NCBI GenBank assembly: GCA_001797275.1
Contig: MGOY01000006.1
Span: 4,744 to 68,743 of the forward strand
From: Clostridiales bacterium GWF2_38_85
GTDB lineage: Bacteria > Bacillota > Clostridia > Oscillospirales > CAG-382
Reading direction: 5' to 3'
Length of the DNA: 64,000 bases
Positions 3,933-31,153 of the stretch are shown piece after piece. A program made the position numbers and the translations under genes. Position 1 is the first letter of the stretch. Each line of letters begins with the position of its first letter. The notes under the pieces were generated by a model. The model was not told the DNA's origin and searched no databases. It worked only from the letters and a program-made list of their open reading frames with translations.

Positions 3933-6416
3933 TTATATAAACAGTGTCGTTCCGGCGTTTTCGTTTTGTGAGATATAGGTTGCGACACCGCCGTATTCGA
4001 TGCCATCGATCAGCTCTTCCTGCTTGATGCCCATCAGGTCCATGCTCATGGTGCAGGCTATGAATTTTACGCCGGCAGCCATAGCGTTCCGTATCATGGT
4101 TTCGATATCGTCGACATTTTTCTTCTTCATAATGCCTTTTATCATCTTCGGTCCCATGCCGAGCATATTCATACTGGAAAGCGGCAGCTTCGCTGCTCCT
4201 CTCGGCATCATACCGCCGAACATTTTCTCGATGAAATTCTTTCTAACCTTAACCTTGTTGTTTTTCCGCAATGCATTCAACCCCCAGAAGGTAAAGAACA
4301 GCGTAACCTTTTTCCCGTTTGCCGCCGCTCCCTGAGCGATTATCATTGATGCTATCGCCTTATCCAACGCACCGCTGAACACAACAATGGTTGCGTTCTC
4401 CTGACTCACGGCCGGTACGGCTGTTTCAGACGAGGTACGACCTTTTTCGATTTCAGCAATATAGCTGCCGTTCTCGTTCCTTATTGAATCGAGCTTATGC
4501 CCGTTGATTTTGCACCAGCTTTCAACATCCTTTACAAAACCGAAATCTGTAGCTGTAACCTTAATGATTGAGCCTTCGGCAGCAGCCTTCACTGCCTTGT
4601 AGGTCGCCATCAGCGGTCCCGGACATTGCAATCCTCTTGCGTCAACCTCAGTTATTGATTTTGGAGCAACAACCTGGTTGTCGATATCAACGGTTGCGGC
4701 AGGCTGTGTTGTAACAATGTTCGAAAGCGGTTTATACTTAGCTGTACTATATGTCAGATAACCTCCTGACAGGTTGTATATATTGCTGAATCCAGCCACT
4801 TTAAGCTGCATAATAGCGACATGCGCTCTCAGCCCTGCCTGGCAGGTAACATACATCGGTTTTTCCATCGCCAATGTAATTTCACTCATTCTTGAACGCA
4901 GATCATCGAGCGGTATATTGACAGAGCCATTGATATGTCCTGCTTCAAACTCAAGCTCAGTTCTGACATCCAGTAAATAGCCGCCGTTTTTTACTATATC
5001 GTCAATTTCATTATAATGAACAAATTTATATTCACCGTCAAGCGTATTCGATGCTATATACCCCAGTATATTAACGGGGTCCTTTGCCGATGAATACGGC
5101 GGTGCATAGCAAAGCTCAAGGTCGGGTAATTCTCTGACTGTTCCGTCCAGCCTTATTACAGTTGATATTACATCGATACGCTTTTCAGTGCCATCTCTTC
5201 CGACCGCCTGTGCACCAAGAATCCTGCCATCTTCGGGTGAAAACAGCAGTTTTAGAGCAATGTTTGTTGCACCAGGATAATAGGATGCATGGTTCGCACG
5301 ATGCGCATGGATTGCGAGGTATGGAATTTTTTTCGCTTTTAACTGTGATTCATTGTTGCCTGTCGATGCGATTGTCAGGTCAAACACCTTTGCAACCGCT
5401 GTTCCCAATGACCCGCCATAACTGATCGGTCTGCCGCTGATATGGTCAGCAACCAGTCTGCCCTGTCTGTTTGCAGGCCATGCAAGCGGAATCGCTGTGG
5501 GGCTACCGTCAATACGGTCAACCACCTCGATTGCGTCGCCGATTGCGTATATATCCTCAACAACGCCGCCTGTTTCAGCGTCAAGCGTTTGCAGCTTATC
5601 GTTCGTTTTTATGTGCCCTCTCGGTCCGAGCGCCAGAGCCGCGCTCTTTGCAAGCGTATTTTCAGGAACAACACCGATTGCGAGTATTACAAGGTCGTTT
5701 GCGACAGTCTTTCCACTTTCGAGTACGACCGTTCTGCCGTTGTCTTTAAATTCCGAGATTCCATCACCGAGTATAAGGTCAACACCGTGTGTATTCAGCT
5801 CCTGATGCACAAACTGCGCCATCTCAAAATCAATCGGGCGTAATACCTGCGGCAGCTTTTCAACCAACGTAACCTTAATGCCAAGATCGCAAAGATTCTC
5901 CGCCATCTCAATACCGATGAATCCGCCGCCGATTACAACTGCGGTTCCGGGTTTATTTTCAGCAACAACAGCTTTAATTTTATCTGTATCGGGGATATTT
6001 CTAAGAACCAATACCCTTTCAGCATCCTGAATACCATTTATCGGAGGTTTTATTGGTTTTGCACCGGGCGAAAGAATCAAAACATCAAATGATTCCTCAT
6101 AGGTGTGTTGTTTTTGCTTGTCATAGACAGTAACCGTCTTTTTGTTGCGGTCAACTGCAACAACCTCGGTCAGGTTGCGGATGTCGAGATTGAACCGCTT
6201 TGTCATTCCTTCGACCGTTTGGACAAGCAAGCTGTCTCTTTCCTTAATAACACCGCCGATATAATAAGGAAGTCCGCAGTTTGCGAATGAGATATACTCA
6301 TCCCTCTCGAACATAATAATATTTGCATCTTCGTTGAGTCTTCTTAACCTTGCAGCAGCGGTTGCACCACCGGCAACACCGCCGACAATAACAATCTTTT
6401 TATTCATATATAACAC
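3933..6416 (-). CDS. multidomain CoA-disulfide reductase-like FAD/NAD(P) oxidoreductase fused to rhodanese, TusA-like and DsrE/DsrF-like domains
   Basis: N-terminus IVIVGGVAGGATAAARL (FAD-binding fold); rhodanese segment ...YVTCQAGLRAHVA...; TusA-like CPGP motif (LQCPGPLMATYKA); C-terminal DsrE-like VVFSGALDKAIASMIIAQGAAANGKKVTLFFTFWGL. Confidence 0.8.
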   Translation of the reverse strand: MLYMNKKIVIVGGVAGGATAAARLRRLNEDANIIMFERDEYISFANCGLPYYIGGVIKERDSLLVQTVEGMTKRFNLDIRNLTEVVAVDRNKKTVTVYDKQKQHTYEESFDVLILSPGAKPIKPPINGIQDAERVLVLRNIPDTDKIKAVVAENKPGTAVVIGGGFIGIEMAENLCDLGIKVTLVEKLPQVLRPIDFEMAQFVHQELNTHGVDLILGDGISEFKDNGRTVVLESGKTVANDLVILAIGVVPENTLAKSAALALGPRGHIKTNDKLQTLDAETGGVVEDIYAIGDAIEVVDRIDGSPTAIPLAWPANRQGRLVADHISGRPISYGGSLGTAVAKVFDLTIASTGNNESQLKAKKIPYLAIHAHRANHASYYPGATNIALKLLFSPEDGRILGAQAVGRDGTEKRIDVISTVIRLDGTVRELPDLELCYAPPYSSAKDPVNILGYIASNTLDGEYKFVHYNEIDDIVKNGGYLLDVRTELEFEAGHINGSVNIPLDDLRSRMSEITLAMEKPMYVTCQAGLRAHVAIMQLKVAGFSNIYNLSGGYLTYSTAKYKPLSNIVTTQPAATVDIDNQVVAPKSITEVDARGLQCPGPLMATYKAVKAAAEGSIIKVTATDFGFVKDVESWCKINGHKLDSIRNENGSYIAEIEKGRTSSETAVPAVSQENATIVVFSGALDKAIASMIIAQGAAANGKKVTLFFTFWGLNALRKNNKVKVRKNFIEKMFGGMMPRGAAKLPLSSMNMLGMGPKMIKGIMKKKNVDDIETMIRNAMAAGVKFIACTMSMDLMGIKQEELIDGIEYGGVATYISQNENAGTTLFI

Positions 6417-19714: not shown

Positions 19715-20417
19715 ACGAATTATAAGATATATAATATTATTCGCTGTTATCCCCGCCAGTGTTATCTTAGGTGCGGTTTTTTTCAGCGGCAAGCAGACTG
19801 CATACATATCGTTGGCTGTTACGATTTTTGCGATTGCAGCATTTCTGTTGTCGTTTGAACATAAAAAAAACTCGTCACGTGAGCTGACGGTTATCGCTGT
19901 TATGACAGCTCTGTCGGTTGTAGGACGAATGATATTTGCCTTGCTTCCGGGGTTTAAACCTGTAACCGCAATTGTTGTAATCACTGCAATGTATTTCGGC
20001 GTTGAAGCGGGTTTCCTGACAGGTGCATTGTCGGCTGTAATCTCGAACTTAACCTTCGGTCAAGGTGCATGGACACCTTTCCAGATGCTCTCCTGGGGCA
20101 TAATAGGATTATTAGCCGGATTCCTTTCACCCATTCTTAAGAAAAGTAAAATAATGTTGTCTGTTTATGCCGTTATTTCCGGTATCTTGTTTTCGTTTAT
20201 CATGGATTTCTGGTCGGTTCTTTGGATCGACAATAATATAAACTGGGCAAGGCTCGGTGCTTTTGCAGTCACAGCACTTCCTGTTACAATAGAATATGCT
20301 GTATCGAATGTAATCTTTCTGCTCCTGCTTGCAAAACCAATTGGAAAAAAGCTGGATCGAGTAAAAATAAAATTCGGACTTTTTAAAAAGGAGTTGCCTA
20401 AAATTGAAAAACAATGA
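19707..20417 (+). CDS. ECF transporter substrate-specific (S) component (substrate unknown)
   Basis: 236-aa six-helix membrane protein overlapping the ATPase gene; the T-AA-S order resembles YkoEDC-type modules. Confidence 0.5.
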
Positions 20418-21177
20418 GCTTCAATATCATATAAAATGTAAAGCCGGTGATGTCGGAAGGTATTGTATTTTACCCGGTGATCCCGGTCGTTGTGAGAAAA
20501 TCGCAGCTTATTTTGATAACCCCATTTTTATTGTATCCAACCGTGAATATACTGTGTACACCGGTACCTTGAGCGACGAAAAGGTTTCTGTCTGCTCAAC
20601 GGGCATCGGTGGACCCTCTGCGGCAATTGCTATCGAAGAGCTTACAGCAATCGGAGCCGACACTTTTATACGGGTAGGCACCTGTGGTGGTATAAATATG
20701 AAGGTCAAGGCAGGCGACTGTGTAATCGCAACCGCTTCAACAAGGCAGGATGGCACAAGCAAGGAATATTCACCACTCGAATACCCTGCTGTTTCAGATT
20801 TCGATGTTGCAGCTGTGTTGATTGAAGCAGCAACAAAACTTGCCTATCCATATCACAAGGGTGTAGTACAGAGCAAGGATTCGTTTTACGGACAGCATGA
20901 TCCGCAAAGGATGCCGACTGCTCCCGAGCTGTTATACAAATGGGAAGCATGGAAAAAGCTCGGTGTGCTTGCCAGCGAAATGGAATCATCAACGCTGTTT
21001 GTTGTCGGAGCAACACTCGGAGTAAGATGCGGTGCTATTTTCTACACTGTCTGGAATCAGGAAAGAGTGAATGCCGGTATTGTTGATGAAAATGACGGTG
21101 ACAATTCGAAATCGATAAAAATTGCAATCGAAGCGATGAAAATACTTATAAAAAAAGATAAACTCATAGGAGAATAA
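20404..21177 (+). CDS. udp: uridine phosphorylase
   Basis: Strong resemblance to E. coli Udp: [43 protein letters not shown]. Confidence 0.8.
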
Positions 21178-21179
21178 TT

Positions 21180-23390
21180 TTGCGATCTGTTAATATACTT
21201 TTATTTATTTTAACGCTATCAGTCATTTTACCCGCTTGTGCTTATAATAAAGTACCCACACCATATGAATCGAATATATCCGTTGAAAACAGCAACGAAA
21301 TTTCTGATTTAGAGAGCAATACTGAAATTAATGCTTCTGAAGAAGATAATACTTCAGATGAAAGTATTATTGACGAATCCATAGATGAATCAAGTATTGT
21401 TGATATTACCAGGTTTAATTTACTCAGCCAATTCACAGATTCGCTTGATGAATTTACAAGAGCTCGTATATCGGAGAACTTTATCAATTGGATTTCTGAA
21501 AATTGCGGACCAGAGGTTATTGATGAAATTTTATCAGCTTTAGAAAATAATATTTATGATAAAGAACAATGGTATAAGCTTACTGGGAACACAATAACGG
21601 TTTTATATGACAAGTTCAACGCTACAAATGAAAATATAATTCAAAAACAGGATAATGGCGACGGTATTACATCAATGATTTTCACCGGCGACATATCGCT
21701 GGCTGACAACTGGTATAATATTAAGGACATGGTTGAAAAGAATAAAACTATATCCGATTATATTGACAGTACATACATTAATGAAATGGTCGGTTCAGAT
21801 ATAACGCTTGTAAACAATGAGTTTACGATAAGCGAACAAGGTGAACCGCTTACAGGGAAAAAATATGTTCTTAGAGCCAGTCCTGAGAGGCTGAAAATGT
21901 ACAAAGCACTTGGAGTTGATATAGTATCTCTTGCAAACAATCATGTATATGATTATGGGAAAGCTGCTTTCCTTGATACTTTGAATTATTTGAAATCTGC
22001 CGGTATACCATACATCGGTGCAGGAATAAATTTATCACAAGCAATGCAGCCACAGTATTATATAATCAACGGCAGAAAAATCGCATTTGTCGCAGCTAAC
22101 CGTTCGGAAAAATACATTTACACCCCGGCAGCAACAGATAACAGTCCCGGAGTTCTCAGATGCTATGATACTGCGCTCTTGAAATATGTTATCCAAGAAG
22201 CAAGACAGAACGCAGATTATTTATTTGTATATGTTCACTGGGGAACCGAATTTTCACACAACTTCGATGAGATTCAGCAGGTGCAGGGATATGAATATAT
22301 TGATGCCGGTGCCGATGCTGTTATTGGCTCACATTCGCACTGTCTGCAGGGCGTCGAGTTTTATAAAGGTAAGCCGATTATCTACGGGCTGGGTAATTTC
22401 TGGTTCAGCGGTAACTCAGAAGAGCTTGGTGTATTAAAAATCGTTATTGATGATACAGGGAAAATAAGTTTTCAGATGCTTATCGGCAAAGAAGACAAGT
22501 TCAAAACTGTATATTCAACCGTGACATCAAAAGCTAATCTTCTTGATTTCCTAAAAAATATCTCAAAGAATGTATATATCGATGAAGCCGGAATGCTGAC
22601 ACCGCTTGAAAATCATTATTCATTCTCATCCAATATCACAGACGATTCTATGTTAAATAAACTGCAACAGTTATCCGATTATACAAAACAGTATAGTGGT
22701 ATCAGCATTTATTATAAAAATGCTGATGGTTTATACTACTCCTATAATGCAGATGTTAAATATATAACTGCAAGCACAATCAAAGGTCCGTTTTCACTGT
22801 ATATTTTAATGAAAGCCGATGAAGGTAAAGTTAGTCTTGATACTATGATTGAGTTGAAAGCTTTTCAAATATGGCGGGGCGGCGGAGTAATTAAGAACAG
22901 TCCTGTCGGCACTGAATATTCAATCAGGCAGCTTATTGAATATGCTATAATTGAAAGCGATAATACTGCTTATAAAATGTTGGTTGATTATTTTGGAGTA
23001 ACCGAATTCAATCAGTATGTTACCGAAAAAGGTTTGAGCTTGCAACTTATAGAAGGTAATGGTTACGGTTATTGCACAGCCAGTGAAATGGCTGAGTTAT
23101 ATCTTGATATTTATAATTATAAAGGGAAAAATGCAGATTTCCTTATTGATTGTTTGCTCAAGACAAAATACAGTGTACAAATACAACAAGGTATAACCGA
23201 ATATCCGGTTGCAGAGAAATATGGCTGCCAGGGTGGTATAAAAGGATATCATGATGTAGCTATTGTATATTCACCAACTACCTTTGTACTGTCGATTTTC
23301 ACTTTGATTGATGCTGAAAGTGAAAACAGCGCAGGACCATTTATATATATTTCCGAAGTAATAAATGACATTAATACGGCACTTTCATGA
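21180..23390 (+). CDS. lipoprotein fusing a CapA/PgsA-type (metallophosphatase-fold) domain to a C-terminal class-A beta-lactamase-like serine hydrolase domain
   Basis: Lipobox LPACAY; acidic S/E/D linker; CapA-like IFTGDISLADNW...ANNHVYDYG...VHWGTEFSHN...GSHSHCLQG...GLGNFWF; C-terminal STIK (SxxK), ESDNTA (SDN), EKYGCQG (KTG-like). Confidence 0.6.
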   Translation: MRSVNILLFILTLSVILPACAYNKVPTPYESNISVENSNEISDLESNTEINASEEDNTSDESIIDESIDESSIVDITRFNLLSQFTDSLDEFTRARISENFINWISENCGPEVIDEILSALENNIYDKEQWYKLTGNTITVLYDKFNATNENIIQKQDNGDGITSMIFTGDISLADNWYNIKDMVEKNKTISDYIDSTYINEMVGSDITLVNNEFTISEQGEPLTGKKYVLRASPERLKMYKALGVDIVSLANNHVYDYGKAAFLDTLNYLKSAGIPYIGAGINLSQAMQPQYYIINGRKIAFVAANRSEKYIYTPAATDNSPGVLRCYDTALLKYVIQEARQNADYLFVYVHWGTEFSHNFDEIQQVQGYEYIDAGADAVIGSHSHCLQGVEFYKGKPIIYGLGNFWFSGNSEELGVLKIVIDDTGKISFQMLIGKEDKFKTVYSTVTSKANLLDFLKNISKNVYIDEAGMLTPLENHYSFSSNITDDSMLNKLQQLSDYTKQYSGISIYYKNADGLYYSYNADVKYITASTIKGPFSLYILMKADEGKVSLDTMIELKAFQIWRGGGVIKNSPVGTEYSIRQLIEYAIIESDNTAYKMLVDYFGVTEFNQYVTEKGLSLQLIEGNGYGYCTASEMAELYLDIYNYKGKNADFLIDCLLKTKYSVQIQQGITEYPVAEKYGCQGGIKGYHDVAIVYSPTTFVLSIFTLIDAESENSAGPFIYISEVINDINTALS

Positions 23391-23627
23391 GTGCTGTGTT
23401 TTTTATTTAATATTACCCAAAATATATGCATATATAAATAAAATTTCGCGTATTATTACGAAATTATTTCTATTGATATTTAAAAAAAACAAGCGTATAC
23501 TGTAGCAGGAAACAGGAATATTACTTAAAATAATTGTCTGAAAAACTGATGTTTTTTCAGGCGATTTTTGCGCAATACAATATGCTTCCTTAACACATCT
23601 TTGAGAAAGGATTTTGTGGTATAAACC

Positions 23628-24656
23628 ATGGAAGAACAAACAAAACCTGACCCCTATCCCGGTATAAAAATCGGACTGACCTATAATCTTAAGAAAGAAA
23701 ATCATTCAGGAACTCATGATGAAGAAGCAGAGTATGACAATATCGAAACAATATTCGCACTTAAAAATGCATTTGAAAAAGCAGGTTATCATGTTGAACT
23801 GATGGAAGCCGATGATGACCTCCCCCTAAGACTAAAGAATACAAAGGTTGATATTGTTTTCAACATTGCTGAGGGAAGAGGCGGAAGAGGCAGAGAAGCT
23901 CAGGTTCCCTCATTGCTTAATATGATGGGTATAAAATTCGCAGGCTCCGACGAAACCACTCTTTGTATTGCGCTTGATAAAGCACTTACCAAAAGAGTAT
24001 TATCGACCTATAAGATTAAAACTCCAAAATTCAAAGTAGTATCCGATATCAAAAAAATGGGTAGCTTTAAAGGCTTCCTTTTTCCTGTTATCGTAAAGCC
24101 GAATGCCGAAGGCTCAAGCAAGGGTATTTCGGATGTTTGTATTGCCGAAGATATTACCTCTTTGAAAAATCTCCTTACAGATAACATTACGAGCTACAAA
24201 CAATCTATGCTTGTCGAAGAATACATCGACGGCCGCGAATTCACAGTTGGCATTCTAGGCAACGGAAGAGATACAAAGGTCTTCCGCCCGATGGAGATTG
24301 TTTATCTTGATCAAAACCGTAATTACAGTGTTTACAGCTTCAATGTGAAACAAAATTATAAAAAACTGATTCGTTATGACTGCCCCGCAGCATTAGATCA
24401 ACAGATTGAAGATAAAATGATTAAAACAGCAAGAAAAATCTATGATACGCTTGAATGCAAGGATTTTTCACGCATGGACTTCAGACTGTCAAACGATAAT
24501 GAAATTTATTTCATAGAAATAAATCCGCTGCCCGGGCTTGCACCCGGCTACAGCGATTATCCCATGCTTGCCGATTTCAACGGCACCGATTATGACACAC
24601 TTGTTCAAAGCATAATATACTGTGCTTTGAAACGTTATAATATTCGGAAGGGATGA
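23628..24656 (+). CDS. D-Ala-D-Ala-ligase-like ATP-grasp enzyme
   Basis: VIVKPNAEGSSKGIS and EEYIDGREFTVGILGN match Ddl-family ATP-grasp motifs. Confidence 0.7.
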   Translation: MEEQTKPDPYPGIKIGLTYNLKKENHSGTHDEEAEYDNIETIFALKNAFEKAGYHVELMEADDDLPLRLKNTKVDIVFNIAEGRGGRGREAQVPSLLNMMGIKFAGSDETTLCIALDKALTKRVLSTYKIKTPKFKVVSDIKKMGSFKGFLFPVIVKPNAEGSSKGISDVCIAEDITSLKNLLTDNITSYKQSMLVEEYIDGREFTVGILGNGRDTKVFRPMEIVYLDQNRNYSVYSFNVKQNYKKLIRYDCPAALDQQIEDKMIKTARKIYDTLECKDFSRMDFRLSNDNEIYFIEINPLPGLAPGYSDYPMLADFNGTDYDTLVQSIIYCALKRYNIRKG

Positions 24657-25795
24657 GTGAATTGAACACTGAGGTTTCACAACTTATCAATTCCAACGAG
24701 AGACCTTCATACTGGTATGACTGGAAATGGCAATATAAGAACAGAATTACAACAGTTGAAGAGCTTCGGAGAATAATCACTCTTTCAGAAAAAGAAAAAA
24801 GTGATATAGAATTTTGCCTTACCAACTTTAGGATGGCAATAACCCCTTATTATGCATCTTTGATGCAAAAAGACAACGTAAATTGCCCTATTAGGATGCA
24901 GGCCGTACCGACAATAAACGAAACTGTCAAGCTTGATTGCGAAATGGCTGATCCGCTCAACGAAGAAGGAGAAAGCCCGGTTCCGAATATTGTGCATCGT
25001 TATCCCGACAGAGTCTTGTTCCTCGTAACTCACAGATGCTCAATGTACTGCAGACATTGTACAAGACGTCGCGTTGTAGGCGAAGAAGACAATATCATAA
25101 CCGAAGCGGAGATAAAAACCGCTGTTGATTATATTTCTCAAAATACGAAGATACGTGATGTTCTGATTTCAGGCGGCGACCCGTTTGTTATGAGCGACGA
25201 AAGACTCGAGAGAATTATCTCTGCACTTCGTGCAATTGAACACGTTGAAATAATAAGAATCGGTACCCGAGTTCCGGTTGTAATGCCAATGAGAGTTACT
25301 GAAGGTCTCGTTAACATGCTGAGAAAGTATCATCCTATCTGGATAAATACTCATTTTAACCATCCGAGTGAGCTTACCCCAGATGCAATAGCTGCCTGCG
25401 CCAGAATAGTTGATGCAGGCATCCCTCTCGGTAACCAGAGTGTTTTGTTGCGTGGTATAAACGACAATGTTGATACAATGAAAACACTACTGCTCAAGTT
25501 GGTTAAATCCAGAGTCAGACCGTATTATCTGTATCAATGTGATCTGAGCCAGGGGCTCGGACATTTCCGCACAAGAGTTGAAAAAGGTGTTGAAATTATA
25601 CAAGCACTGACTGGCAATATATCAGGTTATGCTGTACCGAAATTTGTTATAGATGCACCCGGCGGTGGCGGCAAAATTCCTGTTAATCCCGAATATATCA
25701 TATCCGGAGATAATAAGAAATACATTCTCCGCAACTATAAAGGTGATATTTACAAATATCCGCAGCCGCCTGATCTTGCAGACGAATACAAATAA
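24653..25795 (+). CDS. KamA-family (lysine-2,3-aminomutase-like) radical SAM protein
   Basis: HRYPDRVLFLVTHRCSMYCRHCTRRR (CxxxCxxC radical SAM, KamA signature context); ATGA start/stop overlap with the upstream ATP-grasp gene. Confidence 0.75.
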   Translation: MSELNTEVSQLINSNERPSYWYDWKWQYKNRITTVEELRRIITLSEKEKSDIEFCLTNFRMAITPYYASLMQKDNVNCPIRMQAVPTINETVKLDCEMADPLNEEGESPVPNIVHRYPDRVLFLVTHRCSMYCRHCTRRRVVGEEDNIITEAEIKTAVDYISQNTKIRDVLISGGDPFVMSDERLERIISALRAIEHVEIIRIGTRVPVVMPMRVTEGLVNMLRKYHPIWINTHFNHPSELTPDAIAACARIVDAGIPLGNQSVLLRGINDNVDTMKTLLLKLVKSRVRPYYLYQCDLSQGLGHFRTRVEKGVEIIQALTGNISGYAVPKFVIDAPGGGGKIPVNPEYIISGDNKKYILRNYKGDIYKYPQPPDLADEYK

Positions 25796-25839
25796 AACAA
25801 AATAAGATGTCGGTTTTTCCGGCATTTTTATTATTGCGA

Positions 25840-25880
25840 AGAAAAAATCAGGCAGAATCAATCTGCCTGATTAATTTTAA
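25840..25880. terminator. bidirectional rho-independent terminator
   Basis: aaaaaATCAGGCAGaatcaaTCTGCCTGATtaatttt. Confidence 0.65.
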
Positions 25881-25891
25881 TTAAATTTAAC

Positions 25892-27241
25892 TTAGCGAGC
25901 TTTTTTAACTACAACTGCAAGACCGAATAAGCTTATAACTGCGATAACAGCAACAACAGCTATACCATCGCCTGTAGGAATTGTTGAACTTTCAGATTCT
26001 GTCGTAGATTCAACAGGTTCAACATATTCGCCCTTAAGGGTTACAACAGGAGTCTTTGACCAGTCGTTCGAACCAAAGATACCGCCGCCGTCACGAAGAC
26101 GAACAACTCTCTGTTTTGTATCGTATGTGTTTATAGTGAAGGAAACGCCGATTATATTATTATCAGCAACACTGAGTTCGTAACCTTCAATTGCGAAATT
26201 AGCTATAGGAAGTTTTACTTCATATACAGTTTTGCCTGCATCATCATCACGAGTAGCTTTGCCTTCCCATGTGCCGGATGCATTAATCCAGTTAGTTTGT
26301 TTTGTAACGCCGTCATCATTTACGCCAAGACCGATTTGGTACATATAAGTTGTTGCACCGGCGCCATCGAGCCAGTTAAGAGCATGATCAAGGTTTTCCA
26401 TTGTGTTGGGGTTGATTGTAGAGATGTTAATCTGTACGCAGTCAACTGCCCACATTCCGCTGTCTGCTGTAGCAACAGGATAATAGTGATTTTCTGATGA
26501 TATATCCCAGCCGAGATAGATATATTCATCATCATATGTAGCATAGAAATAACCGGTTGCATACTGGTCATTAGCCTCGAACCATCTGTAATCGCAGAAC
26601 TGGCTTTCGCCGTTGATTTCCATTATAGCATCGCCATATTCGCTAGCGCCAATGATACCATCAAGTGTAGGAGCGGAGGTTGTCTTATAGAAATCCCATT
26701 GAATACTTGCAACAGGAAGTCCTTGGACAGCAACAGCATCACCAACTGCATATAAAGCAATGTTTGTTGCATTACTTACGCTTGTTGTCTGCCAAGCTGC
26801 AGCGATTGTATTATCAGGATCAAGAGCTGCTTCCCATTTGTGAGCAAGAAGAACGAAACCGTCTTCCGGAACTTCGATAGCACTCTTGTCAACACCGTCG
26901 CATGGTAATACTTGAGTAACTTCATATTTATATGAAGTTCTGCTGTACTCAACAACAACGCCAGGCCACCAACCGAATGAGCCTGCGTCACCTACTGTGT
27001 CACAAACATCGCCTGTAAGAATAACACAGTCAGCAAGTCCACCTGCTTTGTTCATCTTGTTAATATAAACTGCCTGAGGTGCTGCGCCGGCAGCAGGATG
27101 ACCATCGTTGCCCTTCATCATATAAGCTGATCCGTCAAGATCAACACCGGCTGTACGATCGAAAGTTTCAGCTGAACCAAGAATCAATGTCATTGAAACC
27201 AATAACATTGCAACGAGAAAAATCGAGATAATTTTTTTCAT
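25892..27241 (-). CDS. secreted/cell-surface protein with an N-terminal signal peptide and a C-terminal TM anchor
   Basis: MKKIISIFLVAMLLVSMTLILGSA signal; C-terminus GIAVVAVIAVISLFGLAVVVKKAR; no catalytic motif recognised. Confidence 0.5.
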   Translation of the reverse strand: MKKIISIFLVAMLLVSMTLILGSAETFDRTAGVDLDGSAYMMKGNDGHPAAGAAPQAVYINKMNKAGGLADCVILTGDVCDTVGDAGSFGWWPGVVVEYSRTSYKYEVTQVLPCDGVDKSAIEVPEDGFVLLAHKWEAALDPDNTIAAAWQTTSVSNATNIALYAVGDAVAVQGLPVASIQWDFYKTTSAPTLDGIIGASEYGDAIMEINGESQFCDYRWFEANDQYATGYFYATYDDEYIYLGWDISSENHYYPVATADSGMWAVDCVQINISTINPNTMENLDHALNWLDGAGATTYMYQIGLGVNDDGVTKQTNWINASGTWEGKATRDDDAGKTVYEVKLPIANFAIEGYELSVADNNIIGVSFTINTYDTKQRVVRLRDGGGIFGSNDWSKTPVVTLKGEYVEPVESTTESESSTIPTGDGIAVVAVIAVISLFGLAVVVKKAR

Positions 27242-27451
27242 TTAATTAATTTGCCCCTTTCAAAATTTGTTATCTTGATTGTACCACCAAATTTTAGTTA
27301 TGTCAATAGTATTTTTTAAAAAATTCATATTTTGATTAAAGTGTGTGAGCAAAATATATTTATTAACTACATATTTCTTGCGTATATTAAATATTTGTGA
27401 ACAAAAAATACGATGAATTCTGTTATCCACCGTATTTAAAATAATATTCAA

Positions 27452-28705
27452 TTATCTGATCTGCTTTTCGGCAATTGCAAGTTTAGCGCAACAACACATA
27501 ATCGGCAATGCTTTATTCAATTCTGCAAGTGACGGATAGGTCGGAGCAACACGGATATTCCTGTCTTCCGGGTCCACGCCGTAAGGATATGTGGCGCCTG
27601 CAGGAGTAAGTGTAACACCTGCTTCCTTTGCAAGCTGAACCACCCTCTTTGCCGTACCATTCGGCAAATTCAAACTTATGAAATAACCCCCGTTAGGATT
27701 GGTCCAATTAATATCCTCAACTCCGCTGAGATTTTTTTCAAATGCTTCAAGTACTGCAACAAATTTCGGTTTTACTATTTTTAGATGCTTCTGCATTTGT
27801 TCAAGAACAGATTCAAAGGTTGGAAACATTCTGCAATGTCTGAGCTGGTTTATTTTATCGTAACCAATTGTCTGAACCTTTAGGCCTTCAAGCACCGCAT
27901 TGATATTGTTCTTAGAACAAGCGAGAGCGGCAATGCCAGCACCTGCATATGATATCTTTGAGGTTGAGGTAAATATATAGAATAAATCCTCATTGCCGAC
28001 CTTCTTTGCCGCTTCAAGCACATTGAGAAGCTTATCGGCTTTATCATTGATATCATGGAGTGCATATGCATTATCCCAGAATACTCTGAAATCATCTGCC
28101 TTTGGTTTCAGATTTGCAAATCTCATTACTGTTTCATCAGAATATGTTATTCCTGTCGGATTCGAATATTTCGGGACGCACCAGATACCTTTTATTGTAT
28201 CGTCGTTTTTAATATACATTTCGACAACATCCATATCAGGTCCTTCGGCTATCATCGGAACGTTAATCATATTTATGTTATTATATTCGCAGATTGCGAA
28301 ATGACGGTCATATCCGGGCACCGGACAAAGAAAGGATATTTTGTCGTATTTCGACCAGGGTTTACTTCCTTTTTTTACACCGTGTGACATTGCTCTCGCA
28401 ACTGTATCATACATCAGATTAAGGCTGGAGTTGCCGCCGGCAATAACCTCGTCGGGTGATACCCCGAGAATATTTGAAAACAACTCTCTGACCTCAGGAA
28501 TACCTGTCAGATTGCCGTAGTTGCGGCAGTCGATTCCGTCTCTCGAGAAGCAGTCTGCATTTGTTTGTATAACAGTCAGGATTCTTTCAGCAGTATCCAA
28601 CTGATTTTCAGCAGGCTTGCCTCTTGACATATCAAGCTTCAGCTCTTGTTGCTTGTAACCATTGTATTCATTTAATAAAGCATTGTAATCAAATTTTGAT
28701 TGCAT
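27452..28705 (-). CDS. PLP-dependent aminotransferase (class I/II fold)
   Basis: 417-aa ORF with an aminotransferase-like pattern, including a SKxxxxAGxxxA-type lysine region (TSTSKISYAGAGIAA). Confidence 0.55.
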   Translation of the reverse strand: MQSKFDYNALLNEYNGYKQQELKLDMSRGKPAENQLDTAERILTVIQTNADCFSRDGIDCRNYGNLTGIPEVRELFSNILGVSPDEVIAGGNSSLNLMYDTVARAMSHGVKKGSKPWSKYDKISFLCPVPGYDRHFAICEYNNINMINVPMIAEGPDMDVVEMYIKNDDTIKGIWCVPKYSNPTGITYSDETVMRFANLKPKADDFRVFWDNAYALHDINDKADKLLNVLEAAKKVGNEDLFYIFTSTSKISYAGAGIAALACSKNNINAVLEGLKVQTIGYDKINQLRHCRMFPTFESVLEQMQKHLKIVKPKFVAVLEAFEKNLSGVEDINWTNPNGGYFISLNLPNGTAKRVVQLAKEAGVTLTPAGATYPYGVDPEDRNIRVAPTYPSLAELNKALPIMCCCAKLAIAEKQIR

Positions 28706-28732
28706 TAATTTGTCCCTCTCAAGTTTAACAGT

Positions 28733-30139
28733 TTAAAATTCCGCATTCCCTGCAGTACGCGGGAACGCTTCGACATCGCGGATGTTGGATATACCGGTTA
28801 AATACATAATAAGTCTTTCAAAGCCCAAGCCAAATCCTGCATGCCTGACACCGCCGTATTTACGCAGTTCAAGATACCACCAGTAGTCTTCTTTAGCTAA
28901 ACCAAGCTCATCAAGCCGAGATTCAAGAAGCTCTAAACGTTCTTCTCTCTGTGAGCCGCCTATAAGCTCACCGACACCCGGAACAAGCATATCCATTGCT
29001 GCAACGGTTTTTCCGTCATCGTTCATGCGCATATAAAAAGCTTTGATCTCCTTCGGATAATCGGTTACAAATACAGGTTTTTCAAAGATTTTTTCTGTCA
29101 GATAACGTTCATGTTCAGTCTGGAGATCAATACCCCATGATACAGGATATTCAAATGTTGCTCCGCTGTTTTTCAGAAGCTCTACCGCTTCAGTGTAGGT
29201 TACATGAGCAAACTCTGCATTGGCAAGGTAATTCAGTCTTTCGAGTATAGTATTGTCTACAAATTTATTAAAAAATGCCATATCAGCTTTGCAGGTATCA
29301 AGCACATATGAGATAACATATTTTATCATTGCTTCGGCAAGTGCCATGTCATCTGCAAGTTCAGCAAATGCAATTTCAGGCTCAATCATCCAGAACTCAG
29401 CAGCATGTCTCGGAGTGTTGGAGTTTTCAGCTCTGAAGGTCGGTCCGAAGGTGTAAACACTGCCATACGCAAGAGCAAAGCATTCGGCTTCAAGCTGTCC
29501 CGAAACTGTCAGTCCGGCAGGCTTCGAAAAGAAATCCTTCGAAAAGTCTACTTTCCCATCCTTGTCTCTCGGAGGCTTCTCAATATCAAAGGTTGTAACC
29601 TTGAACATCTCACCCGCTCCTTCGCAGTCACTTGCGGTTATTATCGGGGTATTTACATATACAAATCCTCTTTCCTGGAAGAACTTATGGATTGCATATG
29701 CCGCAGCTGATCTGACTCTAAACACTGCATTAAAGGTATTTGAACGCGGTCTCAGATGTGCTATCGAACGTAAAAATTCCATTGAATGGCGTTTAGGCTG
29801 CAATGGATATTTGGGTGTCGAGGTTCCTTCAATAATTACTTTGCTCGCTTTTAATTCAAAAGGTTGTTTTACGTTAGGTGTAAGAGTAAGTATACCGGTT
29901 ATTCTGAGAGCTGCACCGATATTCTGACCGGTTATTTCTTTATAATTATCTAATTTATTATCTTCAAGTACAATTTGCAGGTTTGAAAAGTACGAGCCGT
30001 CATTTATTTCTGCAAATCCAAATGCATTGGATGAGCGGATTGTTCTTATCCAGCCGCAAACGGTTATCTCTTTCCCATCAAAATAGTTTGTATCACTGAA
30101 TATACGGGAAATCAGAGTTCTGCTGTTTGTATTAAGCAT
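28733..30139 (-). CDS. asnS: asparagine--tRNA ligase
   Basis: Class IIb aaRS: N-terminal OB fold ([13 protein letters not shown]...FAEINDGS); motif 3 tail ...[34 protein letters not shown] typical of AsnRS. Confidence 0.85.
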
Positions 30140-30416
30140 TTATATGACCATGCCTTTCTTGATGAAGTGTTTAAAAGATTTAACTTTCAAACTTAACCCT
30201 CACAATCATTATATTCAATAGCAAGAATATTATAAACTTTTGTGTTGCATTTTTCAATAGCAAAATAGCACATTTTTAAGTTATTTTCAGTTTCTTATTA
30301 GTTGTTATCGTAAAAAATGAATAATAGCAAAAATTATATTGCATTTATAACGCTTTTATGCTAATATGGATGATGTAAAAAATATATTATAGCAGCAAAT
30401 TGAAAGGTCTTGTGCA

Positions 30417-30974
30417 ATGCAATTTAATAAGAATAAAAATTATATGGACGGAAAAAAAGGTTTTATTTTCGATCTTGACGGGACATTGGTAGATTCAATG
30501 CATTGTTGGCGCAGCTTTGACTGGAACATACAAACTGTTGAAGATGCATACAAGATTATGATCCCATTATATCAATCGGAAATTATGGACAAGGTTGATT
30601 CGGTCGAAAGTCTTGAGAAGTTTAATCAGATGGGAATAAAATGCTGTGTTGCGACCGCAACCCGTACAACAATTTGCAAGCCTTGTATTGAAAGAGTCGG
30701 TATCATGCCGCTTATAGAATTTATACTCTGCAGCGAGGATGTCAAATGTAATAAAACCCGTCCCGACATATATTTTGAAGCCGCTAAACGCATGGGGCTT
30801 GAGCCTTCTGAAACAATTGTATTCGAGGACCAACTTTACACTACAGAAACCGCAAAAAATGCCGGGTTCACTGTGGTTGCGATACATGATAAACAAAGCG
30901 AAATAAACGCTGATGCAATAAAAGCAATTGCAGATGATTATATTTATACATATTCGGAGCTTTTCGAAGCATGA
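30417..30974 (+). CDS. HAD-superfamily hydrolase
   Basis: FIFDLDGTLVDS (motif I); downstream VFEDQ...GF (motif IV-like). Confidence 0.6.
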   Translation: MQFNKNKNYMDGKKGFIFDLDGTLVDSMHCWRSFDWNIQTVEDAYKIMIPLYQSEIMDKVDSVESLEKFNQMGIKCCVATATRTTICKPCIERVGIMPLIEFILCSEDVKCNKTRPDIYFEAAKRMGLEPSETIVFEDQLYTTETAKNAGFTVVAIHDKQSEINADAIKAIADDYIYTYSELFEA

Positions 30975-31153
30975 AATATACACATATTATCTGGGATTTC
31001 AACGGAACAATATTGAATGATGTCGATGCCGGTATAAAAAGCATAAATACCCTTCTTGCACGCAGACAGTTACCGCTTCTGGAATCGGTCGATGCTTATA
31101 AAAACATCTTTACCTTCCCCATTTTGGATGATATATCGGATTTGTATTTCTAA
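30971..31153 (+). pseudogene. truncated N-terminal fragment of a second HAD hydrolase gene
   Basis: 60-aa ORF HIIWDFNGTILNDVD... carries a HAD motif I variant, then stops; no remainder downstream. Confidence 0.45.

Follow-up and report, generated by a model that had tools for sequence, protein, structure and literature searches.

In a 64,000-nucleotide stretch of contig MGOY01000006.1 from Clostridiales bacterium GWF2_38_85 (the window), a gene for an ATP-grasp ligase is directly followed by a gene for a lysine 2,3-aminomutase of the radical S-adenosylmethionine (SAM) type. On balance we think it probable that the two form a self-contained operon, in which lysine is converted to beta-lysine and an ATP-dependent ligation then yields a small molecule carrying a beta-lysine-derived amide. 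What would be new is the second enzyme of a beta-lysine pathway; the recurrence of the pairing in many bacteria and its occasional fusion point to an undescribed route to a beta-lysine-containing amide. In full-text searches no publication was found that links the aminomutase or beta-lysine to an ATP-grasp ligase.

A preliminary description of this DNA, made from the sequence alone, had reported two open reading frames overlapping by ATGA, their coordinates and lengths, and the motif HRCSMYCRHCTRRR, all of which were recovered in the sequence and its translation. It had also left the pair unassigned to any characterised pathway, with which our literature searches and the failed membership tests given below agree.

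The aminomutase is predicted to act on free lysine

The window aminomutase scored 553.9 bits against the NCBIfam model for lysine 2,3-aminomutase (TIGR03820, cut-off 525.4), and it failed the glutamate/arginine 2,3-aminomutase models TIGR04368 (470 vs 650 bits) and TIGR04468 (428 vs 600 bits). The preliminary description had likened it to EpmB/YjeK rather than to catabolic KamA, which proved to be wrong: the score against the EpmB model TIGR03821 was 256.1 bits, under the cut-off of 369.3, whereas TIGR03820 was passed, and the protein is 58% identical to the Clostridium subterminale enzyme (2a5h) in an ungapped alignment over 355 residues (2a5h 15-369, E = 3e-145). Nor did it group with KamA-like families that are not aminomutases, an outcome that the same description had named as speaking against its proposal.

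The CxxxCxxC motif for the [4Fe-4S] cluster and SAM is formed by C129, C133 and C136 within HRCSMYCRHCTRRR, corresponding to C125, C129 and C132 of the 2a5h reference, and Arg138, Asp297, Asp334 and Lys341 align with R134, D293, D330 and K337. We take Arg134 to bind the substrate carboxylate, Asp293 and Asp330 the epsilon-ammonium group, and Lys337 pyridoxal 5'-phosphate (PLP); in published work the two aspartates are described as determinants of lysine specificity that differ in glutamate 2,3-aminomutase. The three cysteines and R134 are kept in 52 of 52 partner aminomutases collected from related loci, and D293, D330 and K337 in every one of these that is complete at the positions in question. 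Because the residues binding carboxylate, epsilon-ammonium and PLP are retained, free lysine would be the substrate, so that aminomutation would have to precede any ligation. Judged by these comparisons the radical-SAM protein is, in all likelihood, a genuine lysine-specific 2,3-aminomutase.

The protein is short because its C-terminal tail is missing. It ends about 7 residues beyond the region aligned to 2a5h and lacks the last 40 residues or so, with only positions 1-61 of the 127 in the Pfam model LAM_C matched, and its 120 closest homologues are all of similar size (356-393 aa). The inter-subunit zinc site of 2a5h is reported, in the 2005 structure paper, to be made up of C268, C375, C377 and C380; Cys268 is replaced by Asn272 in the window enzyme, and in its partner-enzyme counterparts this position holds Ser, Asp, Asn, Thr or Lys. 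The missing C-terminal zinc/oligomerisation tail is a structural feature and not a catalytic one.

The ligase has the Ddl fold and an altered substrate pocket

In public databases the ligase is annotated as 'D-alanine--D-alanine ligase' (Ddl), and the curated NCBIfam collection has no model for it. It matched Pfam Dala_Dala_lig_C with 135 bits but fell under every cut-off of the curated Ddl/Van models, the best being NF002378 with 189 vs 243 bits. Its best sequence matches in the Protein Data Bank (PDB) were Ddl enzymes, which scored about 94 bits when the single sequence was the query and 158 bits with the family profile; an L-amino-acid ligase appeared in the PDB search at 57 bits, and cyanophycin synthetase was a weak match of the family profile at about 30 bits. 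The AlphaFold2 model of the ligase (mean confidence, pLDDT, 92.7) matched PDB folds among which the top 50 listed were all Ddl or Van, with target-normalised template modelling (TM) scores of 0.83-0.87. The Pfam/NCBIfam, PDB sequence and fold comparisons thus bear out the earlier statement that the partner belongs to the Ddl-family ATP-grasp enzymes and is not EpmA-like.

Residues were compared in the numbering of E. coli DdlB, whose sequence was verified against 1iov/2dln. K97, K144, S150, E180, E187, K215, R255, D257, E270, N272, G276 and S281 are invariant in 120 orthologues, and with them every residue that serves ATP, Mg or catalysis. On the other hand, several pocket positions are changed. 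H63 of DdlB corresponds to Glu82 and G252 to Asp279, both invariant in the subfamily of the ligase, here labelled AG1 (aminomutase-associated); the assignment of H63 to Glu82 comes from a structure-aware alignment, while a MAFFT-auto alignment places H63 on the variable Gly85. L282 is replaced by Asp310, which does not vary among close orthologues and is the residue found in most of AG1, and Y216 by Gln, Lys or Arg. In place of the DdlB Glu15 loop there is an acidic stretch, D31-x-E33-A-E35-Y-D37, where the alignment is uncertain. The ligase therefore looks active, with a substrate pocket that appears to be unlike that of Ddl, and the altered, more acidic pocket would fit a substrate with an extra cationic group. 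Sequence and structural model together indicate that the partner is a catalytically intact ligase of the Ddl fold and not a Ddl.

The pairing is conserved and fused in some lineages

In genomes of the Genome Taxonomy Database (GTDB) the aminomutase gene lies directly downstream of the ligase gene in 8 of 8 close orthologous loci, which include Lachnoclostridium phytofermentans KNHs2131, Lachnospiraceae and Oscillospiraceae. A scan of genome contigs with the single ligase sequence gave 12 loci, and the same arrangement was seen in five further contigs (L014-L018). When approached from the aminomutase side, both sampled contexts (Anaerocolumna aminovalerica, 1.8-Mb contig) had the ligase 12 nt upstream. 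The pairing was present at all 21 loci in which the ligase is at least 49% identical to that of the window. A profile scan of metagenomes with the ligase family added 80 more loci; among wider-family loci flanked by 2.5 kb or more on each side the aminomutase was found in 29 of 33, and in 10 of the 10 such loci having ligase orthologues of >50% identity. Conservation of the gene neighbourhood had been named in the preliminary description as a check, and an unconserved pairing as evidence against the proposal; the pairing recurs. Adjacency of the two genes across about 60 independent loci is far beyond chance.

The ATGA overlap itself is not conserved, the spacing at orthologous loci ranging from a 20-nt overlap to a gap of about 14 nt. 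No conserved third gene was found in the Clostridial cassette; the flanking genes differ in every lineage compared, which suggests that the pair is sufficient on its own. A search of a plasmid collection gave a single match, a Rhizobium ATP-grasp protein at 29% identity.

Fusion proteins occur in both gene orders. Of the 150 top-ranking representatives of the family, drawn from a library clustered at 50% identity, four have the aminomutase in front of the ATP-grasp domain and one has it behind, and a further fusion was found at locus L088. The five fusions of the same order share no more than 35-45% identity among themselves but remain colinear along about 700 aa, and the fusion is thus old and maintained; the same two observations rule out assembly artefacts, which we had considered. 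Each 90% cluster of fusion proteins is a singleton or a pair. Fusions in both orders are classic Rosetta-stone evidence of a shared pathway. Given the conserved pairing and the existence of fusions, the two genes would constitute a functional unit, and these comparisons argue firmly that ligase and aminomutase are functionally coupled.

More distant relatives form larger clusters

Relatives at 37-43% identity are usually found in a four-gene cluster consisting of the aminomutase, AG1, a distinct second ATP-grasp paralogue (AG2) and a GNAT acetyltransferase of about 160 aa. The cluster has two alternative gene orders with overlapping gene boundaries. It recurs widely in Chloroflexota/Dehalococcoidia, one complete 1.76-Mb genome among them, as well as in other metagenomic lineages. 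Both of its ligases are annotated as D-Ala-D-Ala ligases although they are under all Ddl cut-offs. AG2 carries signature residues of its own that differ from those of AG1; with these, and with 119-158 bits vs a cut-off of 243, its identification as a true Ddl was rejected. The GNATs are weakly RimI-like, and assignment as AblB was likewise rejected (TIGR03827, 21.7 bits vs a cut-off of 205).

Directly downstream of the GNAT gene, three four-gene clusters have a gene for a protein of about 580 aa with a domain of the histone-deacetylase family (acetylpolyamine-amidohydrolase-like) and an uncharacterised N-terminal half, which hints at reversible acetylation of the product. Some loci have three further genes lodged between ligase and aminomutase, coding for a histidine kinase with a PAS domain, a response regulator of the sigma-54 NtrC type and a small receiver protein, which suggests signal-controlled expression in that lineage. 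At locus L102, in a complete Chloroflexota genome, genes for a BpsA_C branched-chain polyamine synthase and S-adenosylmethionine decarboxylase lie 3 kb from the four-gene cluster, a closeness that may be coincidence.

The top 150 representatives include 92 single-domain proteins, 37 double ATP-grasps and the 5 aminomutase fusions. Double ATP-grasps also characterise a high-GC branch (GC 0.69-0.71; L027, L031 and L054), where they are tandem, probably fused, and correspond to the 600-720-aa two-domain representatives P0121-P0125. No aminomutase was seen within 4-5 kb of these three.

A proposed route from lysine to a beta-lysine amide

In the first step of the proposed pathway, which rests on residue-level homology, the radical-SAM/PLP enzyme would convert free L-lysine to (3S)-beta-lysine. 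We infer that beta-lysine is then the substrate of the Ddl-fold ATP-grasp ligase, which would form an acyl-phosphate with ATP and from it one amide bond involving beta-lysine. Beta-lysine could be activated at its carboxylate and coupled to an amine, or it could itself accept, on its beta- or epsilon-amine, a common amino acid that the ligase has activated. Either way we expect a small molecule, a dipeptide or isopeptide-like; a stress protectant or compatible solute, or some other specialised metabolite, is our guess at its role. Synthesis of beta-lysine followed by ligation, as put forward in the preliminary description, is retained as the most economical reading, with no characterised pathway to match it. 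The link to peptidoglycan that was suggested with it is not supported, the CapA-like neighbour being neither conserved nor in the same transcription unit.

Several points weigh against this proposal. The interpretation of the pocket residues relies on the DdlB alignment, which is uncertain in the N-terminal loop. No osmoregulated context, transporter or riboswitch was found that would directly support a role as compatible solute. Finally, the high-GC branch with double ATP-grasps implies that not every family member needs a neighbouring aminomutase.

Alternatively, the ligase could attach beta-lysine to a macromolecule, either to a protein lysine, as EpmA does with EF-P, or to a cell-wall precursor, and this we regard as decidedly unlikely. 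EpmB/EpmA are an established precedent of an aminomutase and a ligase that serve protein beta-lysylation, the enterococcal D-aspartate ligase is an ATP-grasp enzyme acting on a cell-wall precursor, and the RimI-like character of the GNATs in four-gene relatives, weak as it is, would agree with a protein target. Some neighbours are also wall-related, namely the CapA/beta-lactamase-like gene in the window and Polysacc_synt and NlpC/P60 genes at L014. However, these are not conserved, and clustering of flanking open reading frames from about 95 loci gave no efp, epmA or mur gene as conserved neighbour, frame calling being crude in the high-GC loci. The wide distribution of the four-gene cluster in Chloroflexota/Dehalococcoidia speaks against it as well, as do the dedicated regulators (histidine kinase and sigma-54) that some relatives carry within the cluster, an arrangement unlike that of a housekeeping modification. 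Moreover, the Ddl-fold enzymes characterised so far are known to act on small substrates.

We consider it very unlikely that the ligase polymerises beta-lysine, either by itself or together with a second amino acid, to an oligo- or poly-amide, which would be a polycation resembling cyanophycin or epsilon-polylysine. With its carboxylate and distal amine, beta-lysine could be used iteratively by one ligase, and the paired paralogues and fused tandem copies frequent in relatives (37 of the 150 top representatives) recall cyanophycin synthetase with its two active sites, itself a weak profile match. On the other hand, no member of the Ddl family is known to be processive, the ligase family is far nearer to Ddl than to that enzyme, and neither an exporter nor a primer-related gene nor a hydrolase was consistently nearby in the clustering of flanking frames. 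A broader possibility, also unlikely in our view, is that AG1 is a large unstudied family representing a new class of beta-lysine chemistry in Clostridia, Chloroflexota and others, whose product would be a homo-oligomer or polycation, or beta-lysylated protein or envelope made by an ATP-grasp enzyme, and not a simple dipeptide osmolyte; the Clostridial two-gene cassette would then be its minimal form. That the aminomutase merely catalyses the first step of lysine fermentation, next to an unrelated gene or an ordinary Ddl, is extremely improbable. Its identity to the fermentative C. subterminale enzyme and the public annotation of its partner would fit, but other genes of lysine fermentation are not adjacent in the window (about 14650-35800 covered) or at any orthologous locus, the pairing holds across phyla, with fusions in several lineages, and the ligase scores below every Ddl cut-off and no longer has the His63/Tyr216/Leu282 pocket.

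Comparison with known systems

Three fates of beta-lysine are established: it is fermented, it is N-acetylated to give an osmolyte, or it is attached to EF-P or to antibiotics. The second of these is represented by AblA/AblB, which synthesise N-epsilon-acetyl-beta-lysine in methanogens and some bacteria. The window pair resembles it as a two-gene cassette in which a TIGR03820-type aminomutase (the window enzyme passes the AblA model) makes beta-lysine and a second enzyme caps it via an amide. In contrast to AblB, however, the second enzyme of the pair is no GNAT but an ATP-grasp ligase; no GNAT, and thus no neighbour of the AblB type (TIGR03827), was found in the window unit or the two-gene loci.

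In its enzyme logic, the nearest precedent is PylB/PylC of pyrrolysine biosynthesis: free lysine is rearranged by a radical-SAM enzyme, and PylC, an ATP-grasp enzyme that is Ddl-like, joins the resulting amino acid to the N-epsilon of a second lysine. PylB is not known to belong to the KamA family. Unlike that system, the Clostridial cassette has neither a PylD-like gene nor any conserved third gene, and PylC does not appear among the 60 best PDB matches of the ligase-family profile, in which Ddl reaches 158 bits. EpmB/EpmA share with the pair a KamA-family aminomutase supplying beta-lysine to an ATP-dependent ligase, but the window aminomutase stays under the EpmB cut-off, there is no linked efp gene, and the ligase has an ATP-grasp fold instead of being a paralogue of class II aminoacyl-tRNA synthetases.

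With Ddl/VanA the window ligase has in common the three-domain fold and the machinery for ATP, Mg and acyl-phosphate, whereas its scores below the curated cut-offs, its replaced pocket and its linkage to an aminomutase instead of mur/fts genes set it apart. Similarly, the aminomutase retains all catalytic and lysine-binding residues of C. subterminale KamA but lacks about 40 last residues, and its context is biosynthetic and not fermentative. Ngg (with a GNAT and an ATP-grasp enzyme making the osmolyte NAGGN) and carnosine synthase are examples of ATP-grasp enzymes that make dipeptide protectants and of ATP-grasp activation of a beta-amino acid; they serve as an analogy only, without detectable specific sequence relationship to the window ligase.

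If the proposal is true, the route via a Ddl-fold ligase would be a fourth fate of beta-lysine, leading to a new metabolite or metabolite family, and the ligase would represent a new specificity class within a fold heavily studied as a drug target. The cassette is small and self-sufficient, and is present in the cultured, tractable anaerobes Lachnoclostridium phytofermentans and Anaerocolumna aminovalerica. An annotation correction is also called for, as hundreds of clusters named 'D-alanine--D-alanine ligase', many of them in metagenome-assembled genomes of Chloroflexota/Dehalococcoidia, are very unlikely to make D-Ala-D-Ala.

Organisation of the locus and neighbouring genes

Coordinates of the window features and of the related loci are collected in Table 1. 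In the ATGA at 24653-24656 the start codon of the aminomutase gene (ATG, 24653-24655) overlaps the stop codon of the ligase gene (TGA, 24654-24656), as read from the sequence. There is an alternative in-frame start, TTG at 24662, with which a 5-nt gap would replace the overlap; the overlap is uncertain in this respect, while the tight linkage holds with either start.

As predicted terminators bracket the pair and a promoter-like site precedes it, ligase and aminomutase would be a transcription unit of their own. The promoter is a candidate, assigned from its consensus match. The word TATTGACAT, which is -35-like, is common to the upstream regions of 4 of the 14 orthologous loci compared, and when k-mers were compared across the upstream regions of 15 orthologous loci, nothing beyond a -35-like word emerged. 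No Rfam match at E ≤ 1 was obtained across 20000-31000 that would indicate a riboswitch or leader RNA upstream of the ligase gene, and at the gathering score no family, and thus no tRNA, rRNA or riboswitch, was found in all 64 kb. Neither of the two proteins has a paralogue elsewhere in the window. Identical sequences of both lie on a contig from a groundwater metagenome, which NCBI places in the metagenome-assembled genome Clostridiales bacterium GWF2_38_85.

Table 1. Positions of genes and signals in the window, and of selected features at related loci (numbered L).
Feature	Position	Strand	Remarks
ATP-grasp ligase gene	23628..24656	+	342 aa; Ddl superfamily, AG1
Lysine 2,3-aminomutase gene (KamA/AblA type)	24653..25795	+	380 aa; radical SAM; C-terminal domain truncated
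Shine-Dalgarno-like GGAAGGG of aminomutase gene	24646..24652	+	inside 3' end of ligase gene; read from sequence
Terminator-like hairpin with T-run	23373..23400	+	ends upstream CapA/beta-lactamase-like gene; pattern scan, consensus match only
Sigma-70-like promoter candidate	23473..23501	+	TTGATA, 17 nt spacer, TATACT; 10/12 matches; in 237-nt intergenic region
Terminator-like hairpin	25804..25828	+	9 nt past aminomutase stop codon; pattern scan
Perfect 11-bp hairpin	25846..25872	.	terminator-like on both strands; between aminomutase gene and convergent minus-strand 449-aa gene
CapA/beta-lactamase-like gene	21180..23390	+	736 aa
Predicted secreted protein gene	25892..27241	-	449 aa
Aspartate aminotransferase gene	27452..28705	-	type Ic
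Four-gene clusters	L045 3659-7473; L063 3622-7463; L085; L096; L102 7713-11473		L102 is CP070642.1
Loci with inserted regulators	L047, L049, L055, L058; also L027, L038, L048, L079		L047, L049, L055, L058: ligase ~5001-5984, aminomutase ~4 kb downstream
Double ATP-grasps, high-GC branch	L027 3654-5645; L031 3114-5135; L054 3996-6020		
~580-aa protein downstream of GNAT	L042 7000-8739; L046 7505-9245; L063 7473-9215		
BpsA_C and S-adenosylmethionine decarboxylase genes	L102 14255-15708	-	

Upstream of the pair, the 736-aa protein is a fusion of a PGA_cap (CapA-like) domain (residues 166-409) with a Beta-lactamase2 (class-A-like) domain (residues 509-708), an unusual combination, and its N-terminus resembles a lipoprotein signal (…LPAC…). 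The preliminary description had noted the proximity of this gene to the pair. The two do adjoin physically, but the CapA-like gene is missing from every orthologous locus and is separated from the pair by terminator- and promoter-like sites; a CapA/peptidoglycan connection was rejected, and we regard the protein as not linked to the pair.

Downstream, the 449-aa protein has an N-terminal signal-like segment, and its gene is convergent with the aminomutase gene, with which it shares the perfect hairpin. Pfam and NCBIfam gave no match for this protein. Its C-terminal tail (…IPTGDG, a hydrophobic stretch and KKAR) resembles a sorting or anchor signal. The gene beyond encodes a type Ic aspartate aminotransferase, a rare kind (Rv3722c-like; NF053594, 605.6 bits vs a cut-off of 435). 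The GC content is uneven along the window: at 42-46 kb it is 0.27-0.30, whereas it reaches 0.46-0.47 in the segments 4-6 kb and 50-54 kb.

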